The position numbers were made by a program, and so were the translations under genes. From Eledone cirrhosa (Eukaryota), in assembly GCA_964016885.1 (NCBI GenBank), contig OZ024740.1:440324001-440388000 (forward strand): 64,000 nucleotides of DNA, given 5' to 3'. The notes under the pieces were generated by a model that saw nothing but the letters and a program-made list of their open reading frames with translations, was not told where the DNA came from and did no database searches. Position 1 is the first letter of the stretch, and each line of letters opens with the position of its first letter. Shown here piece by piece: positions 1-9,604 of this stretch.

Positions 1-3000
1 TGTGGTTGTGTGTGTGGTTGTGTGTGTGGTTGTATGTGTGGTTGTGTGTGTTTGTGTGGTTGTGTGTGTGGTTCTGTGTGTGTTTGTATGTATGGTTGTG
101 TGTGTGGTTGTGTGTGTGGTTGTGTGTGTGGTTGTATGTGTGGCTGTGTGTGTTTGTGTGGTTGTGTGTGTGGTTGTGTTTGTGGTTGTGTGTGTGGTTG
201 TGTGTGTGGTTGTGTGTGTGGCTGTGTGTGTGGTTGTGTGTGTGGTTGTGTGTGTGGTTGTGTGTGTGGTTGTATGTATGGTTGTGTGTGTGGTTGTGTG
301 TGTGGTTGTGTGTGTGGTTGTGTGTGTTTGTGTGGTTGTGTGTGTGGTTGTGTGTATGGTTGTGTGTGTGGTTGTGTGTGTGGTTGTGTGTGTGGTTGTG
401 TGTGTGGTTGTATGTGTGGTTGTGTGTGTGGTTGTGTGTGTGGTTGTGTGTGTGGTTGTGTGTGTGGTTGTGTGTGTGGTTGTGTGTGTGGTTGTATGTG
501 TGGGAGTGTGTGTGGTTGTATGTATGGTTGTGTGTGTGGTTGTGTGTATGGTTGTCGGTGTGTGGTTGTGGGTGTGGTTGTGTGTGTGGTTGTGTGTGTG
601 GTTGTGTGTGTGGTTGTATGTGTGGTTGTGTGTGTTTGTGTGGTTGTGTGTGTGGTTGTGTGCGTGGTTGTGTGTGTGGTTGTATGTGGGGGAGTGTGTG
701 TGGTTGTGTGTGTGGTTGTATGTATGGTTGTGTGTGTGGTTGTGTTTGTGGTTGTGTGTGTGGTTGTGTGTGTTTGTGTGGTTGTGTGTGTGGTTGTATG
801 TATGGTTGTGTGTGTGGTTGTATGTGTGGTTGTGTGTGTGGTTGTGTGTGTTTGTGTTGTTGTGTGTGTGGTTGTGTGTATGGTTGTGTGTGTGGTTGTG
901 TGTGTGGTTGTGTGTGTGGTTGTATGTGTGGTTGTGTGTGTGGTTGTGTGTGTGGTTGTGTGTGTGGTTGTGTGTGTGGTTGTGTGTGTGGTTGTGTGTG
1001 TGGTTGTGTGTGTGGTTGTGTGTGTGGTTGTGTGTGTGGTTGTATGTATGGTTGTGTGTTTGGTTGTGTGTGTGGTTGTGTGTGTGGTTGTATGTGTGGT
1101 TGTGTGTTTGGTTGTGTGTGTGGTTGTATGTATGGTTGTATGTGTGTTTGTGTGTGTTTGTGTGGTTGTGTGTGTGGTTGTGTGTGTGGTTGTATGTGTG
1201 GTTGTATGTATGGTTGTGTGTGTGGTTGTGTGTGTGGTTGTGTGTGGTTGTGTGTGTGGTTGTATATGTGGTTGTGTGTGTGGTTGTGTGTGTGGTTGTA
1301 TGTGTGGTTGTGTGTGTTTGTGTGGTTGTGTGTGTGGTTGTGTGTGTAGTTGTATGTATGGTTGTGTGTGTGGTTGTGTGTGTGGTTGTGTGTGTGGTTG
1401 TATGTGTGGCTGTGTGTGTTTGTGTGGTTGTGTGTGTGGTTGTGTTTGTGGTTGTGTGTGTGGTTGTGTGTGTGGTTGTGTGTGTGGCTGTGTGTGTGGT
1501 TGTGTGTGTGGTTGTGTGTGTGGTTGTGTGTGTTTGTGTGGTTGTGTGTGTGGTTGTATGTATGGTTGTGTGTGTGGTTGTGTGTGTGGTTGTGTGCCTG
1601 GTTGTGTGTTTGTGTGGTTGTGTGTGTGGTTGTGTGTATGGTTGTGTGTGTGGTTGTGTGTGTGGTTGTGTGTGTGTGGTTGTGTGTGTGGTTGTGTGTG
1701 TGTGGTTGTGTGTGTGGTTGTGTGTATGGTTGTGTGTGTGGTTGTGTGTGTGGTTGTGTGTGTGGTTGTGTGTGTGGTTGTGTGTGTGGTTGTGTGTGCG
1801 GTTGTATGTGTGGTTGTGTGTGTGGTTGTGTGTGTGGGTGTATGTTTTGTTGTATGTGTGTTTGTGTGTGTTTGTGTGGTTGTGTGTGTGGTTGTGTGTG
1901 TGGTTGTATGTATGGTTGTATGTGTGTTTGTGTGTGTTTGTGTGGTTGTGTGTGTGGTTGTGTGTGTGGTTGTATGTGTGGTTGTATGTATGGTTGTGTG
2001 TGTGGTTGTGTGTGTGGTTGTGTGTGGTTGTGTGTGTGGTTGTATATGTGGTTGTGTGTGTGGTTGCGTCTGTGGTTGTATGTGTGGTTGTGTGTGTGGT
2101 TGTGTGTGTGGTTGTATGTATGGTTGTGTGTGTGGTTGTGTGTGTGGTTGTGTGTGTGGTTGTATGTATGGTTGTGTGTGTGGTTGTATGTGTGGCTGTG
2201 TGTGTATGTGTGGTTGTGTGTGTGGTTGTGTTTGTGGTTGTGTCTGTGGTTGTGTGTGTGGTTGTGTGTGTGGCTTTGTGTGTGGTTGTGTGTGTGGTTG
2301 TGTGTGTGGTTGTGTGTGTTTGTGTGGTTGTGTGTGTGGTTGTATGTATGGTTGTGTGTGTGGTTGTGTGTGTGGTTGTGTGTGTGGTTGTGTGTGTGGT
2401 TGTATGTATGGTTGTGTGTGTGGTTGTGTGTGTGGTTGTGTGTGTGGTTGTGTGTGTGGTTGTGTGTGTGGTTGTGTGTGTGGTTGTATGTATGGTTGTG
2501 TGTTTGGTTGTGTGTGTGGTTGTGTGTGTGGTTGTATGTGTGGTTGTGTGTGTGGTTGTGTGTGTGGTTGTATGTGTGGTTGTGTGTGTGGTTGTGTGTG
2601 TGGTTGTATGTGTGGTTGTGTGTATGGTTGTATGTGTGGTTGTGTGTTTGGTTGTGTGTGTGGTTGTGTGTGTGGTCGTATGTGTGGTTGTGTGTGTGGT
2701 TGTGTGTGTGGTCGTATGTGTGGTTGTGTGTGTGGTTGTGTGTGTGGTTGTATGTATGGTTGTATGTGTGTTTGTGTGTGTTTGTGTGGTTGTGTGTGTG
2801 GTTGTGTGTGTGGTTGTATGTGTGGTTGTGTGTGTGGTTGTGTGTGTAGTTGTATGTGTGGTTGTGTGTGTGGTTGTGTGTGTGGTTGTATGTATGGTTG
2901 TATGTGTGTTTGTGTGTGTTTGTGTGGTTGTGTGTGTGGTTGTGTGTGTGGTTGTATGTGTGGTTGTATGTATGGTTGTGTGTGTGTGGTTGTGTGTGTG

Positions 3001-4806
3001 GTTGTGTGTGGTTGTGTTTGTGGTTGTATGTGTGGTTGTGTGTGTGGTTGTGTGTGTGGTTGTATGTGTGGTTGTGTGTGTTTGTGTGGTTGTGTGTGTG
3101 GTTGTGTGTGTGGTTGTATGTATGGTTGTGTGTGTGATTGTGTGTGTGGTTGTGTGTGTGGTTGTATGTGTGGCTGTGTGTGTTTGTGTGGTTGTGTGTG
3201 TGGTTTATTTGTGGTTGTGTGTGTGGTTGTGTGTGTGGTTGTGTGTGTGGCTGTGTGTGTGGTTGTGTGTGTGGTTGTGTATGTGGTTGTGTGTGTGTTT
3301 GTGTGTGTGGCTGTGTGTGTGGTTGTGTGTGTGGTTGTATGTGTGGTTGTGTATGTGGTTGTGTGTGTTTGTGTGGTTGTGTGTGTGGTTGTGTGTGTGG
3401 TTGTGTGTGTGGCTGTGTGTGTGGTTGTGTGTGTGGTTGTATGTGTGTTTGTGTATGTGGTTGTGTGTGTGGTTGTGTGTGTGGTTGTGTGTATGGTTGT
3501 GTGTGTGATTGTGTGTGTGGTTGTGTGTGTGGTTGTGTGTGTGGTTGTGTGTGTGGTTGTGTGTATGGTTGTGTGTGTGGTTCTGTGTGTTTGTGTGGTT
3601 GTGTGTGTGGTTGTGTGTGTGGTTGTGTATGTGGTTGTGTGTGTGGTTGTGTATGTGGTTGTGTGTGTTTGTGTGTGTGGTCGTGTGTGTGGTTGCGTGT
3701 GTGGCTGTGTGTGTGATTCTGTGTGTGGTTGTATGTGTGGTTGTGTATGTGGTTGTGTGTGTGTGGTTGTGTGTGTGGTTGTGTGTATGGTTGTGTGTGT
3801 GGTTGTGTGTGTGGTTGTGTGTGTGGTTGTGTGTGTGGTTGTGTGTGTGGTTGTGTGTGTGGTTGTGTGTATGGTTGTGTGTGTGGTTGTGTGTGTTTGT
3901 GTGGTTGTGTGTGTGGTTGTGTGTGTGGTTGTGTATGTGGTTGTATGTGTGGTTGTGTATGTGGTTGTGCGTGTTTGTGTGGTTGTGTGTGTGGTTGTGT
4001 GTGTGGTTGTGTGTGTGTGGTTGTGTGTGTGTGGTTGTATGTATGGTTGTGTGTGGTTGTGTGTGTGGTTGTGTGTGTGGTTGTGTGTGTGGTTGTGTGT
4101 GTGTGGTTGTGTGTGTGGTTGTATGTGTGGGAGTGTGTGTGGTTGTGTGTATGGTTGTGTGTGTGGTTGTGGGTGTGGTTGTGTGTGTGGTTGTGTGTGT
4201 GGTTGTGTGTGTTTGTGTGGTTGTGTGTGTTGTTGTGTGTGTTTGTGTGGTTGTATGTGTGGTTGTGTGTGTTTGTGTGGTTGTGTGTGTTGTTGTGTGT
4301 GTGGTTGTGTGTGTGGTTGTGGGTGTGTGTGTGGTTGTGTGTTTGGTTGTATGTGTAGTTGTGTGTGTGGTTGTGTGTGTGTTTGTATGTGTGGTTGTAT
4401 GTGTGGTTGTATGTGTGGTTGTATGTGTGGTTGTGTGTGTGGTTGTGTGTGTGGTGGTGTGTGTGGTTGTGTGTGTCGTTGTGTGTGTGGGTGTGTGTGT
4501 GGGTGTGTGTGTGGTTGTGTGTTTGGTTGTATGTGTAGTTGTGTGTGTGGTTGTGTGTGTGGTTGTATGTGTGGTTGTATGTGTGGTTGTATGTGTGGTT
4601 GTATGTGTGGTTGTGTGTGTGGTTGTATGTGTGGTTGTGTGTGTGCGGTTGTATGTGTCGTTGTGTGTGTGGGTGTGTGTGTGGTTGTGTGTGTGGTTGT
4701 ATGTGTGGTTGTGTGTGTGGTTGTGTGTGTGGTTGTGTGTGTGGTTGTGTGTGTGGTTGTGTGTGTTGTTGTGTGTGTGGTTGTGTGTGTTTGTGTGGTT
4801 GTGTGT
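1..4806. repeat. 12-bp TG-rich minisatellite, consensus (TGTGTGTGGTTG)n, roughly 400 units, truncated by the window start
   Basis: GGTT recurs about every 12 nt within TG dinucleotides. Common variants are TGTATG, GTTT and GGCT, with occasional 10-, 14- and 18-bp units. The + strand is almost entirely G and T. Confidence 0.97.
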
Positions 4807-4924
4807 ATGCATGTATATACACACACACACACATATAGATACAATTGTGTATGAATGTATGAGTAAGTGGATATACTGGCTATATGAATTGTTAGGTGGA
4901 TACACACACATATATATATATATA

Positions 4925-5004
4925 TGTGTGTGTGTGTGTCTGGTTATCTATGTGTGTGTGTGTCTGTGTGTCTATATGTGTGTGCGTGTCTGTGTGGGTG
5001 AGTG

Positions 5005-5037
<33 letters not shown>

Positions 5038-5730
5038 CTATATGTGTGTGTGTGTGTGTGTCTGTGTGTCTATGTGTGTATGTATGTGTGTGTGTGTGTG
5101 TGCACGTGTGTGTATGTGTGTGTCTATGTGTCTTTGTGTGTATGTATGTGGGTGTGTGTGTGTGTGTGCACGTGTGTGTAGGTGTGTGTGTGTGTCTATG
5201 TGTGTCTGTATGTGTGTGTGTCTGTGTGTCTATGTGTGTGTGTGTATGTATATGTGTGTGTGTGTCTATGTGTGTGCGGGTGTGTGTCTATGTGTGTGCG
5301 GGTGTGTGTGTATATGTGTGTATGTGTGTGTGTGTGTATGTCTGTGTATGTGTGTATGTGTGTGTGTGTGTTTGTGTGTCTATGTGTGTGTGTCTGTGTG
5401 TCTGTGTGTTTGTGTGTATGTATGTATGTGTATCTATGTGTCTGTGTTTGTGTGTCTATGTGTGTGTGTGTGTATGTCTATGTGTGTGTGTGTCTATGTG
5501 TATGTGTGTGTCTGTGTGTCTATATATGTGTGTCTGTGTGTGTGTGTCTATCTATGTGTGTGTGTGTGTGTCTATGTGTGTCTGTGTGTCTATGTGTGTG
5601 TATGTGTGTCTGTGTGTGTCTATCTATGTGTGTGTGTCTATCTATGTGTGTGTGTGTCCATCTATGTGTATGTGTGTGTGTCTATCTATCTATGTGTGTG
5701 TGTGTGTCTATATATGTGTGTGTGTGTGTG
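4925..5730. repeat. Degenerate (TG)n microsatellite interrupted by TCTA/TCTG/TATG
   Basis: TG runs punctuated by GTCTAT and GTCTGT motifs. There is no GGTT periodicity, so it is distinct from the upstream 12-mer. Confidence 0.93.
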
Positions 5731-6056
5731 CATTGGAAAGCAGTAGGAAATAAATTACAACACGAAGAAACAGTGAATTTCATAATATTGAAATATAAAC
5801 ATATAAATAGTGGGGATATGGTGGAGTTAGGAAGAAAGTATGGAAGGATAGAAGAGAAGAAAATGGCAACATAAGAATATGTAGATATAAGATATTAGGG
5901 TAGAGTGAGTGTAACAGAGAAGATGAGAGACAACGAAATATAGGAAGGTATTGAGAGAAGGGGAGGGGAGATAGTGAGAGAGAGAAAACAACGTAGTTCT
6001 GTGTTATGTATAATGTACAATAGATATATACATGTGTGTACGCTACATACACACAC

Positions 6057-6059
6057 GTA

Positions 6060-6096
<37 letters not shown>

Positions 6097-6250
6097 TGTA
6101 TATAGTATATCTCCCAAAAATGTATACACACTTCAACAGCATTCTAATCAAAGTGTATATATATATATATATATATGCATATATTTACGTGTGAAAGTAC
6201 CTGTAAGCAAATATATAGAGAGTACATGTAAGTATATATATATATATATA
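6057..6250. repeat. Cluster of (TA)n microsatellite runs
   Basis: TA runs at about 6057-6096, 6156-6176 and 6234-6250. The last run abuts the palindromic element. Confidence 0.9.
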
Positions 6251-6903
6251 TTGGTAAACGGAATAGAAAATGCTGACAAATTGTTCACAGTTGAAAAATG
6301 GTTTAATTAGGAATAAAAGAGTATTAGTGATTGTATGGGTTAGTATTCAGTTGTGGTTTAAAGTTTTTAAGCTTTTACCGGTTGCGCATTTCTAAATGCT
6401 TTTCAAAAATAATTTTGAGATAGAGTGTCCGTGCTGTTTGCTCTGATCTGATTAGTTTTGGGAATTCTACCTGTTTTTATGTTAAAAAAATGGCTCCAGC
6501 GTTATTTTTGTGTTGCAAAAATGCTTGTGGTCAAAACAATTTTGATTGGTCGGTAGAGGTCATGTGAATGTAAAAGCTTTTTACATTCACATGACCTCTA
6601 CCGACCAATCAAAATTGTTTTGACCACAAGCATTTTTGCAACACAAAAATAACGCTGGAGCCATTTTTTTAACATAAAAACAGGTAGAATTCCCAAAACT
6701 AATCAGATCAGAGCAAACAGCACGGACACTCTATCTCAAAATTATTTTTGAAAAGCATTTAGAAATGCGCAACCGGTAAAAACTTAAAAACTTTAAACCA
6801 CAACTGAATACTAACCCATACAATCACTAATACTCTTTTATTCCTAATTAAACCATTTTTCAACTGTGAACAATTTGTCAGCATTTTCTATTCCGTTTAC
6901 CAA
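6251..6903. mobile_element. 653-bp near-perfect palindrome; putative non-autonomous foldback/MITE-like DNA element inserted in (TA)n
   Basis: 6251-6575 is the reverse complement of 6579-6903 (paired positions sum to 13154, no indels). There is one mismatch (C6372 vs A6782) and a 3-nt spacer GCT at 6576-6578. Termini are TTGGTAAACGG...CCGTTTACCAA with TATATA on both sides. The palindrome is directly seen; the mobile-element call is inference. Confidence 0.7.
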
Positions 6904-6938
6904 TATATAATAACTTGTGTGTTACACCTCTATTCTTT

Positions 6939-7056
<118 letters not shown>

Positions 7057-7205
7057 GATATCGAAAATGCAACTGGAGTCTTTTTTTTTTTTAATATATA
7101 TATTTATTTGGTTCCTTTACCGGTTTCATCTTTTTTTCTTTATACTTTCACTCGTGTAGGACACCTCGGTTGTTTTCATTTTGTAAAAAAAAACACTTTC
7201 TAATA

Positions 7206-7211
<6 letters not shown>

Positions 7212-7255
<44 letters not shown>
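7212..7255. repeat. (TA)22 microsatellite
   Basis: Perfect TA run lying immediately 3' (minus-strand sense) of the hammerhead motif. Confidence 0.95.
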
Positions 7256-7257
<2 letters not shown>

Positions 7258-8456
7258 AACAAGTAAGACCCCGACGGCTGAGCTCAAGCCGTTTCGACGG
7301 CTAATTCTGGACTGAATGAAAATTTATTCTGGTATTTAAATAGCCGAGCTTATCAAGGGGTAATTCCATATATGGTCAAAGAGATAATCACCAGGATTGG
7401 TCACATCACAAGTTAGTAGTAAATCTGTGATGGCAAATTGGTGGGGGAAGGGGTAGCTAAACCTGCCGGAAGGAGAAAAGGGGAGAGGGGGTAAGGCCGG
7501 CTACAGCTGGGCGTGAGGTCAAAGATGATACTGGGGAGGGGGAGGGTGAGGAAGTCGAAACGGTAAGTAGAACAATGAAGGGTAAAAACTATAAAAAGTA
7601 CTGAGAGAGAAAAAAAAAAAAACAAAGTCTGGTTACTAAGACTTAAGTCTCTCGCTATTGCTAGGCTAAAGAAATACATAAATAAATAAACAAATAAGTG
7701 AATAAAAGAATAGATAAATAAATTTAAAAAAAATATATATATAATGAAGAATAAAAAAAAAATAATAATAATAAAAATAAACTAGGTGGGACGGAAATAA
7801 AGGGACCCTTATACGAGGTATAAGTGCGTGTATCGTACGGTCGGGTCAACGAAGGGGGGCCCAAAATACTAAAGAGACTACCACGAAATAATAAAGGTTT
7901 CTACCCCAATCACAGGGCCAGCAACCACCCAGTGCAAGAAAGTAAACTAGTACGAGAATATAATTCAGGGTCCCGCAAAAAAATACTAGTGCTAACTCTA
8001 AGGGTACCGCCACGAAACAAAAAGTATTATACAAGCTACATGAAAGATCGTACGAAGTAAAAGTAAAGAACGGAAAATTAATACAGAAACACCCCCCCCC
8101 CCAAAAAAAAAAGGGAAAAAGAAGAAAGAAATACTGGATAAACGAGAAATTGAAGCAAAGATGCCACTAAGAAATATAGAAGGCACGGAAAAAAAGCACA
8201 GCGGTCGGAGAAGGGGGCAAGTATCCGAAGTCTAACACCTCTGCTATAAAAAGCGGAGTGAGCCAAATCTATCATAGAATAGGGGAGGGGGTGGGGGTGC
8301 TGAAGCTACAAGGGACCGAGGAGCTACCTCGTGTGGGCGAGAAAAAGACGACGACAAAGAACAGGAACTGGGGTAGAAGGACTAGGGAGGGATGGGGTGA
8401 AGGAGGAAATATAGAGGAAGCGATAAAAGAATGTCAAAGAAGATTTTACGTCTCCA
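7256..8456 (-). mobile_element. Possible non-coding remnant or terminus of a Penelope-like element or retrozyme (far boundary uncertain)
   Basis: A hammerhead motif next to a (TA)n run, with CCAAT and TATTTAAATA motifs nearby and pyrimidine-rich minus-strand sequence upstream. Type I hammerheads in animals are known from Penelope-like pLTRs and retrozymes. I recognise no RT or GIY-YIG coding remnant. Confidence 0.35.
7268..7361 (-). ncRNA. Type I hammerhead ribozyme motif, U3-A8 core variant
   Basis: The minus strand reads ACCCC-UUGAUAA-G-CU-CGGCUA-(37 nt)-UAGCCG-U-C-GAA-ACGGCU-UGAGCUC-AGCCGU-C-GGGGU. Stem I is ACCCC/GGGGU. The core UUGAUAA is CUGANGA with C3U and G8A. Stem II is a G-C pair plus CGGCUA/UAGCCG, followed by GAAA. 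Stem III is ACGGCU/AGCCGU, followed by a GUC triplet, with predicted cleavage between 7273 and 7272. Confidence 0.8.
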
Positions 8457-9604
8457 TTGGATGTAGTATGTGTGATAGGGATGTAGAGTGTGTTATATGG
8501 ATGTAACATGTGTGTGATATCGATGTAGAGTGTAGTGATATGGATGTAGAGAGTTTGATATAGATGTAGAATATGTGATATAGATGTAGAATGTGTGATA
8601 TGGTTGTAGAGTTTGTGATATGGATGTAGAGAGTGTGCTATGAATGTAGAATGTGTGATATTGATGAAGAGTGTGTGATATAGATGTAACCTGTGTGTCA
8701 TATGGATGTAGAATGTGTGATATGGGTGTAGAGTGTGTGATATGTATATAGAATGTGCCATATGGATGTATAGTGTGTGATATGGATATAGAATGTGCCA
8801 TATGGATGTAGAGTGTATGATATGGATGTAGGGTGTGTGATATGCATATAGAGTGTGTGATATGGATATAGGGTGTGCGATATGGATTCAGAGTGTGTCA
8901 TATGGATGTAGCGTGCCTGATATGGATGTAGAGTATGTGAAATGGATGTAGAATGTGTGATATAGATGTAGAGCGTGTTACATGGATGTAGTGTGTGTGA
9001 TATGGATGTAGAATGTGTGATATGGATGTAGAATGTGTGATATCGATGTAGAGTGTGTGATATGGATGTAGAGTGTGTGATATGGATGGAGAGTGTGTGA
9101 TATGGATGTAGAATGTGTGATATTGATGTAGAGTGTGTGATATGGATGTAGAGTGTAGCAATATGGATGTAGAATGTGTGATATGGATGTAGAGCGCCTG
9201 ATATGGATGTAGAGTATGTGATATGGATCTAGAATGTGCGATATGGATGTAGAGTGTGTGATATGGATGGAGAGTGTGTGATATGGATGTAGAATGTGTG
9301 ATATTGATGTAGAGTATGTGATATGGATGTAGAGTGTAGCAATATGGATGTAGAATGTGTGATATGGATGTAGAGCGCCTGATATAGATGTAGAGTATGT
9401 GATATGGATCTAGAATGTGCGATATGGATGTAGAGTGTGTGACATGGATGTAGAGTGTGTGATATGGATATAGAATATGTGATATAGATGTAGAATTTGA
9501 GATATGGATATAGAGTGTGTGATATGGATGTAGAGTGTAGTTATATGGATGTTGAACGTGTAATATGGATGTAGAATTTGTGATATGGATGTAGAGTGTG
9601 TGAA

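Follow-up and report, generated by a model that had tools for sequence, protein, structure and literature searches.

A terminal U3-A8 hammerhead motif in a Hydra-clade Penelope-like element of Eledone cirrhosa, and a genomic record of its putative cleavage

The role of the hammerhead ribozymes (HHRs) of Penelope-like elements (PLEs) is stated as open in the parts of three papers that are drawn on here (PMC4209133, PMC8557442, PMC11167929). For the Cercyon PLEs of Schistosoma, circle formation has been modelled as the role of cutting, and the same parts of that paper report no in vivo evidence for these hammerheads (PMC4209133). For the PLE of Anolis, the reverse transcriptase (RT) was found to start internally, and the HHR to be assisted by protein and not required for insertion in vitro; an RNA-seq test in Anolis found no cut ends (PMC11167929). 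The U3-A8 core alone is not new, as it has already been published, PLEs included (PMC3088659, PMC4209133). The initial annotation of the DNA described here, which presented U3-A8 as a natural compensatory core that is missed by CUGANGA searches, agrees with both of these papers.

The described elements that most resemble the present one are the Hydra-clade PLEs (Craig et al. 2021, PMC8557442, consulted in part). These have a single ORF with RT and GIY-YIG domains and a 3' hammerhead. They also share with the PLE of this study the signatures RW(K/R), DKT, CxCx5C and CxxC/CxH, the absence of CCHH, a (TA)n target, partial tandems, an inverted 5'-truncated partner and an optional tail.

The window is a stretch of 64,000 nucleotides of the Eledone cirrhosa assembly GCA_964016885.1 (contig OZ024740.1, positions 440,324,001 to 440,388,000), about 2.5 Mb from the contig end, and all positions below count from its first letter. 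Our main reading, to which we assign a probability of roughly 0.6, is that it holds the terminal hammerhead of a high-copy Hydra-clade PLE, a ribozyme that is likely slow and partner-dependent and likely cuts a few percent of the RNAs in vivo.

The hammerhead motif and its host element

Most of the window consists of simple repeats and a 20-bp satellite. A mixed island that contains retroelements lies at about 5730-8460, flanked by a 12-bp TG-rich array (1-5730) and the 55-kb 20-bp satellite with its strong G skew. The initial annotation placed a type I hammerhead with three stems in this island, and every coordinate and pairing that it gave was found in the minus-strand sequence:

7256-7367, minus strand: type I hammerhead with extended stem I, letters and pairing checked
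7361-7357 and 7272-7268, minus strand: stem I, ACCCC/GGGGU, checked base by base
7350-7356, minus strand: core box UUGAUAA, with U3 at 7356 and A8 at 7351
7349 and 7296, minus strand: base of helix II, G10.1-C11.1, followed by a 2x1 loop (CU/U)
7346-7341 and 7303-7298, minus strand: outer pairs of helix II, CGGCUA/UAGCCG, checked base by base
7304-7340, minus strand: loop II, 37 nt, which holds five of the shared subfamily changes discussed below
7295-7292, minus strand: GAAA, checked base by base
7292-7287 and 7279-7274, minus strand: stem III, ACGGCU/AGCCGU, full 6 bp
7272-7273, minus strand: predicted cleavage site GUC/G, between 7273 and 7272, the second hot spot of copy 5' ends

Three helices surround the core and helix I is open, as in type I hammerheads, and the window copy has U4, G5, A6, N7, A9, G12, A13, A14, A15.1, U16.1 and H17 together with a Watson-Crick 3-8 pair. 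The sequence also agrees with the proposed distal extension of stem I (GGAAU 7367-7363 with GUUCC 7260-7256, CUUACUU 7267-7261 being unpaired). The length of loop II (37 nt) is a feature that the earlier account did not mention. The letters of G10.1-C11.1 are present, and the predicted pairing is 0.03 in the monomer and 0.10 in the dimer. Both the stem I bulge and loop II, the partners of the putative loop I-loop II contact, vary between subfamilies, without clear covariation.

As a control, the same descriptor, with positions 3 and 8 left free, was run on 3.23 Mb of dinucleotide-shuffled loci. Eight matches were obtained, of which one had a Watson-Crick 3-8 pair and none was as strong as the window motif. 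Since no shuffled match reached this strength, the motif is beyond chance, and the sequence supports a genuine type I hammerhead for which self-cleavage is predicted. A check against the Rfam hammerhead models, which had been suggested, gave no match at the gathering score and no hammerhead among the 51 matches at E≤10. The long loop II in combination with U3-A8 is the likely cause.

The motif had been taken for a hidden single ribozyme. It proved instead to be the terminal motif of a high-copy retroelement, and the following features define its setting:

7253-8460, minus strand: 5'-truncated PLE copy of 1.2 kb, 3' UTR/pseudo-LTR (pLTR) only, no tail
7203-7255, strand not specified: (TA)n target; the PLE stops at 7253, which is 20 nt beyond the cut site
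8458-63996, strand not specified: 20-bp satellite that abuts the truncated 5' end of the PLE copy

In an alignment of 1265 columns, the window copy is 91% identical to the 3' part of a full unit in another locus (L034); it begins about 50 nt after the ORF stop codon and contains no ORF. From its sister copies it differs by a median of 2.7% substitutions over 7253-7600 (54 alignments), and it is a young, non-coding fragment. The same PLE was present at 30 of 30 loci in one fetched set and at 16 of 16 in another. A query of 165 nt around the motif gave 1,538 candidates in its own genome; among 40 scored places, chosen for identity, 36 of those listed, the window being one of them, were identical over the full length. 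The copies are 5'-truncated, often with an inverted partner, and inserted in (TA)n, and they have two fixed 3' ends 80 nt apart, at 7253 (51 alignments) and 7173 (52 alignments).

The full unit measures 3610-3639 nt, which is the spacing of tandem cut sites. It encodes a single ORF with RT and, at its C terminus, a GIY-YIG domain (motifs YRDD and VIY..YIG), in which DKT, RWR, CxxC..E and N..CxH are present and CCHH is absent; CxCx5C is present in the ORF of locus L032 and altered in that of L034. The ORF has 775 unnamed homologues, and Pfam and PDB searches with it gave no matches. An ORF of RT and GIY-YIG, partial tandems, an inverted truncated partner, an optional tail and an HHR in the pLTR are the features of EN+ PLEs. 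The RWK-like motif, DKT, CxCx5C, the lack of CCHH, CxxC and CxH around E and N, and the (TA)n target place the element in the Hydra clade, an assignment made from motifs and target. Neptune and Naiad were rejected on account of the motifs. So was a non-LTR retrozyme, whose tandem units would be short, non-coding and furnished with one hammerhead apiece, because the unit is 3.6 kb and coding. An intron starting from a TACTAAC-like branch point near 7417-7411 was also rejected, as the motif is missing in other subfamilies and no splice joint was observed. The two sequence runs that were examined consist of contigs whose kind is not recorded; their depth is 3'-heavy, they show no GT-AG joint, and they are mute on expression and splicing. 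In the tail of L032, L033 and L034, a 13-codon upstream ORF lies 62 nt after the cut site, ahead of the main ATG at +190.

Other hammerhead-like motifs were seen nearby and in the fetched loci. At 6156-6982 of the window, another repeat inserted in (TA)n forms a head-to-head palindrome of 0.8 kb, and each arm carries a minimal hammerhead-like U3-A8 motif with GCAA replacing GAAA (plus strand 6748-6778; the partner on the minus strand near 6390). The minus strand at 7053-7135 holds the 3' half of a minimal hammerhead family (GAAA-CCGG-UA), of which whole U3-A8 copies occur in L032 and L075. Family B (L010:2620-2710, minus strand; L047-L076; L073:2624, plus strand) forms retrozyme-like 591-bp tandems with U3-A8 and a loop II of about 45 nt; in its diverged L073 copy, stem I shows a compensatory change. 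Family C (L031:790-840, minus strand; L107-L136; 1,749 candidates) forms 319-bp tandems with U3-A8 and shows a compensatory change in its palindromic helix III. Family D (L015:120-230, minus strand; L077-L106; 2,430 candidates) has C3-G8 and a structured loop II of about 70 nt.

Core positions 3 and 8

Exact genome counts for the window family gave 1,088 copies with U3-A8, 1,051 with C3·A8, 11 with U3·G8 and 2 with C3-G8. The two C3-G8 copies were considered as a compensated sub-lineage, which was rejected, since about 11 would be expected from random change. The C3·A8 copies have kept their stems and are linked to the same ORF, with about 85-95% protein identity to that of L034. Core position 7 differs between subfamilies, being U, G, A or C.

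The descriptor with free positions 3 and 8 was also run on 136 loci, which overlap and had been fetched by these motifs, and on part of the window; within this scope, 214 of 216 matches had U-A or C-G at 3-8. The matches comprise the window family, seven other families (four U3-A8, three C3-G8) and one likely chance match. The earlier claim of a maintained 3-8 pair holds across families, where all seven of the others have U-A or C-G, and is weakened within the window family, which has 1,051 C3·A8 copies.

Changes shared by at least 25 copies were then counted among 167 whole-core copies, the paired and core positions being those outside the search pattern. Shared subfamily changes were found at 7 of 53 unpaired positions versus 0 of 32 paired or core positions (p=0.04). 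In the core and stems, shared changes occur at positions 3 and 7 only. The distribution of these changes supports the view of a maintained ribozyme, which the C3·A8 copies, about half of the family, weaken.

A midpoint-rooted tree with one outgroup copy was restricted to the 28 copies with a linked ORF end. One U3-A8 copy falls outside, six C3·A8 copies form a basal grade, and the remaining 21 (20 with U3-A8 and one with a single C3 change) form a 100/98 clade that includes the window's subfamily. A basal C3·A8 grade with a nested U3-A8 clade suggests that the mismatched state amplified well and that the pair was likely restored afterwards.

Where the genomic copies begin

Exact genome matches to the 3' half of the motif number 36,540, against about 2,150 for the 5' core. 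The same step is seen in read depth and loose ends, taken from contigs of unrecorded kind. In a sample of 89 copies taken in genome order, 74 (about 83%) start at 7307-7319, 2 start in the interval from that zone to the core, and 13 contain the core in full. The 74 short copies include 68 head-to-head arms, 31 with the tail and 37 without it. An apparent peak at 7317 (15 of the 89 copies) is partly an artefact of inverted arms. By exact matching, the longest arms spread over 7307-7317 in 35 of 36 cases, and none of 50 distinct (TA)n-flanked places clearly extends past 7317 when scored by eye. Of 16 copies that start at A7313, seven are preceded by an untemplated extra G (by eye), and such a G is attributed to cap copying in the cited literature. 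Two sequence motifs lie close to this position:

7310-7315, minus strand: initiator-like TCAGTC (TTAGTC in other subfamilies), with the inferred start at A7313
7335-7342, minus strand: tentatively TATA-like TATTTAAA, 29 nt before 7313

TCAGTC resembles the initiator consensus. Not every subfamily retains the TATA-like motif (TATTCATA). The transcription start and promoter of the element likely lie in loop II. TATA and initiator-like motifs in pLTRs are already known (Arkhipova 2013 among others), and promoter motifs placed inside a hammerhead loop were not found in the literature consulted on pLTR promoters. Head-to-head joints were explained by self-priming on antisense RNA (Arkhipova 2013); arms that end at landmarks of the sense RNA would fit two cDNAs made on sense RNA better.

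The second hot spot coincides with the predicted cut site. Matches that start at G1.1 (7272) after three non-template letters number 921, whereas a start placed 3 nt upstream gave 53. In the first 100 such G1.1 matches, 21 are G-run expansions and no true starts, and the control 3 nt upstream is contaminated by TTAGTC jumps. Another 386 G1.1 matches are preceded by C, and about 73 of the first 100 are CCCC/GGGG joints of two arms. It is estimated that about 1,000 copies, or about 3%, start exactly at 7272. The cleanest class is that of the A/T-flanked starts. Of the first 100 of 594, scored by eye, 31 are at 7272, 6 at 7273/4 and 7 at 7275, which scales to about 184, 36 and 42; there are 25 at 7271. 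In this class, the peak at 7272 is 4-7-fold over the neighbouring positions.

Short head-to-head joints were found at 428 places (control 8). Among the 49 distinct joints listed and scored by eye, 26 have both arms at 7272 and 7 have the longer arm exactly there, while 14 continue through the cut site and 2 are ambiguous. In many copies, mostly of the older subtype, TTAGTC is followed immediately by the GTC of the cut site, which is a jump from one RNA landmark to another. In families B, C, D, G and H, the copies are too few for a cut-site peak to be judged. Taken from genomic sequence, the 7272 starts likely record cleavage by the ribozyme in vivo. Speaking against cleavage, the C3·A8-linked subtype shows no depletion of such starts (22 of 73, versus 13 of 69 in the background, p=0.13). 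A first contrast (p=8e-6), which pointed to weaker cutting in C3·A8 copies, had used the contaminated control.

It is also conceivable, though in our judgement unlikely, that the motif folds and rarely or never cuts, acting as a structural or protein-binding signal, and that the 7272 peak reflects RT stalling at the three-way junction or repair at the G run. Stalling at the base of helix III would be expected to retain C17, whereas 7273/4 starts are rare (6 versus 31), and the matches preceded by C are mostly joints of two arms. The absence of shared changes in core and stems apart from positions 3 and 7, and the U3-A8 core of the younger subfamilies, also speak against it. In its favour are the 1,051 copies in which 3-8 is unpaired and whose linked ORFs share about 85-95% protein identity with that of L034, the HHR mutants of Anolis that leave insertion in vitro unaffected (PMC11167929, in part), and the joints with GG or GGG microhomology that were observed, as the G run gives microhomology to an inverted arm. 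That 7272 is a minor transcription start (C/G) with no cut is far less probable: an extra G does precede 6 of 37 A/T-flanked cut-site starts, well above a G-run slippage estimated at about 0.5%, but it is less frequent than at 7313 (7 of 16, p=0.04), and the exact match to a hammerhead cut site would be a coincidence.

Predicted folding, proposed cycle and known systems

Another feature absent from the initial annotation is that helices II and III have the same 3' strand, a run of seven letters that all main subfamilies share. The motif is therefore not the minimum-energy fold, and a competing hairpin becomes possible:

7287-7302, minus strand: competing hairpin AGCCGU-CGAA-ACGGCU, which would sequester GAAA
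7274-7292, minus strand: helix III with a near-palindromic loop, self-complementary between two copies

The predicted pair probability of the competing hairpin is 0.65 at 37 °C and 0.93 at 20 °C, and that of an active monomer with all pairs is 0.011. According to these predictions, the hairpin would keep the monomer mostly off. The helix III duplex of two copies is predicted at -30.7 kcal/mol, compared with -7.1 for the hairpin. Two copies are predicted to fold, unconstrained, as a double hammerhead in which helices I, II and III are mostly at 0.85-1.0, and a whole copy with a half that starts at 7313 gives the same arrangement (most pairs 0.85-1.0). The fast, canonical monomeric type I hammerhead stabilised by contacts between loops I and II that the initial annotation pictured is thus very improbable: the full 6-bp helix III, the extended stem I (predicted at 0.82-0.97) and the ability of long-helix-III PLE hammerheads to work as monomers (PMC4209133, in part) would suit it, but the competing hairpin dominates the prediction, loop II is long (37 nt) and variable, only an estimated 3% or so of copies start at the cut site, and the junction is intact in all long copies.

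In the slow, partner-dependent reading that we prefer, Pol II would start at A7313 inside loop II, and a unit transcript would begin with one half of a hammerhead and carry a complete one at the 3' end. RT would initiate internally, at 7253 or at 7173, both of them downstream of the cut, and probably with one site for each target strand. Starting near the RNA 5' end, it would give rise to the tens of thousands of head-to-head copies of 60/140 nt; starting at the 3' copy, it would produce long copies like that of the window, whose whole ribozyme would arise only by read-through. The monomer would mostly be trapped in the competing hairpin, and pairing of two palindromic helix III regions would provide the cleavable fold. 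Cutting would then free an RNA that begins at GGGG, recorded as copies of 20/100 nt, the sole products expected when it precedes reverse transcription. Because the cut would part the element body from the sites where RT starts, only RNA that is uncut or re-ligated could give long copies, and this would account for the failure of the C3·A8 mismatch to stop amplification. A ribozyme that is off as a monomer and on with a partner fits this need of the long copies, the tolerance of C3·A8 and the protein-assisted, dispensable HHR of Anolis. Cutting may serve to form circles, as modelled for Cercyon (PMC4209133), or may limit the element.

We put forward only tentatively, at somewhat below even odds, that a strand-swap hairpin switches a ribozyme divided between both ends of a single transcript and that cutting occurs in trans, with the 3' copy cutting the 5' copy, a capped start in loop II, a cut at G1.1 and a core change that was crossed via a C3·A8 state, itself copied a thousand times. 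If this is true, the copies would be direct evidence of PLE hammerhead cutting in vivo and would have captured an intermediate of compensatory evolution in a ribozyme core, and the genome itself would map the RNA ends of its retroelement. The tens of thousands of tiny copies allow the 5' ends of the RNA to be counted, and one sharply defined class of them falls at the predicted cut. Counting copy starts is applicable to any genome with young PLEs, and the natural U3-A8 and C3·A8 cores in one frame provide material for a kinetic comparison. Neither genomic copies that begin where a PLE hammerhead cuts nor an amplified C3·A8 core was found in the open-access literature searched; subscription papers and supplements may bear on both points.

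Judged by its sequence, the motif is a genuine hammerhead whose kind and setting are known. Its anatomy is a variant one, and the indirect record of its activity is unusually strong. Compared with the Hydra-clade PLEs (PMC8557442, in part), whose units are under 3 kb with tails of 30-40, the window PLE has a unit of 3.6 kb and a tail of 80 nt. All 26 Hydra hammerheads in File S2 of that paper are C3-G8 with a loop II of 3-10 nt, whereas the window family has U3-A8 or C3·A8 and 37 nt. The Cercyon PLEs (Cervera and De la Pena 2014, PMC4209133, in part) likewise have U3-A8 pLTR hammerheads that CUGANGA descriptors miss, and share with the window PLE the palindromic helix III, the long helix II and the dimer model; their hammerheads are minimal with little or no helix III, while that of the window has a full 6 bp and the strand-swap hairpin. 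The hammerheads of Perreault et al. 2011 (PMC3088659), in which C3-G8 covaries to U3-A8, are active in vitro and have a palindromic loop III in repeats, as in the window PLE; an amplified C3·A8 state, as counted in the window family, and a loop II promoter, as proposed for it, do not appear in the parts of that paper drawn on here. The Poseidon PLE of Anolis (Frangieh et al. 2024, PMC11167929, in part) is like the window PLE in having two internal RT start sites that define the tail and an HHR at the pLTR-ORF junction. Its ORF starts in stem II, whereas the ORF ATG of the window family lies 190 nt past the cut, and no RNA ends were seen at its cut site, whereas the genomic copies of the window family pile up there.
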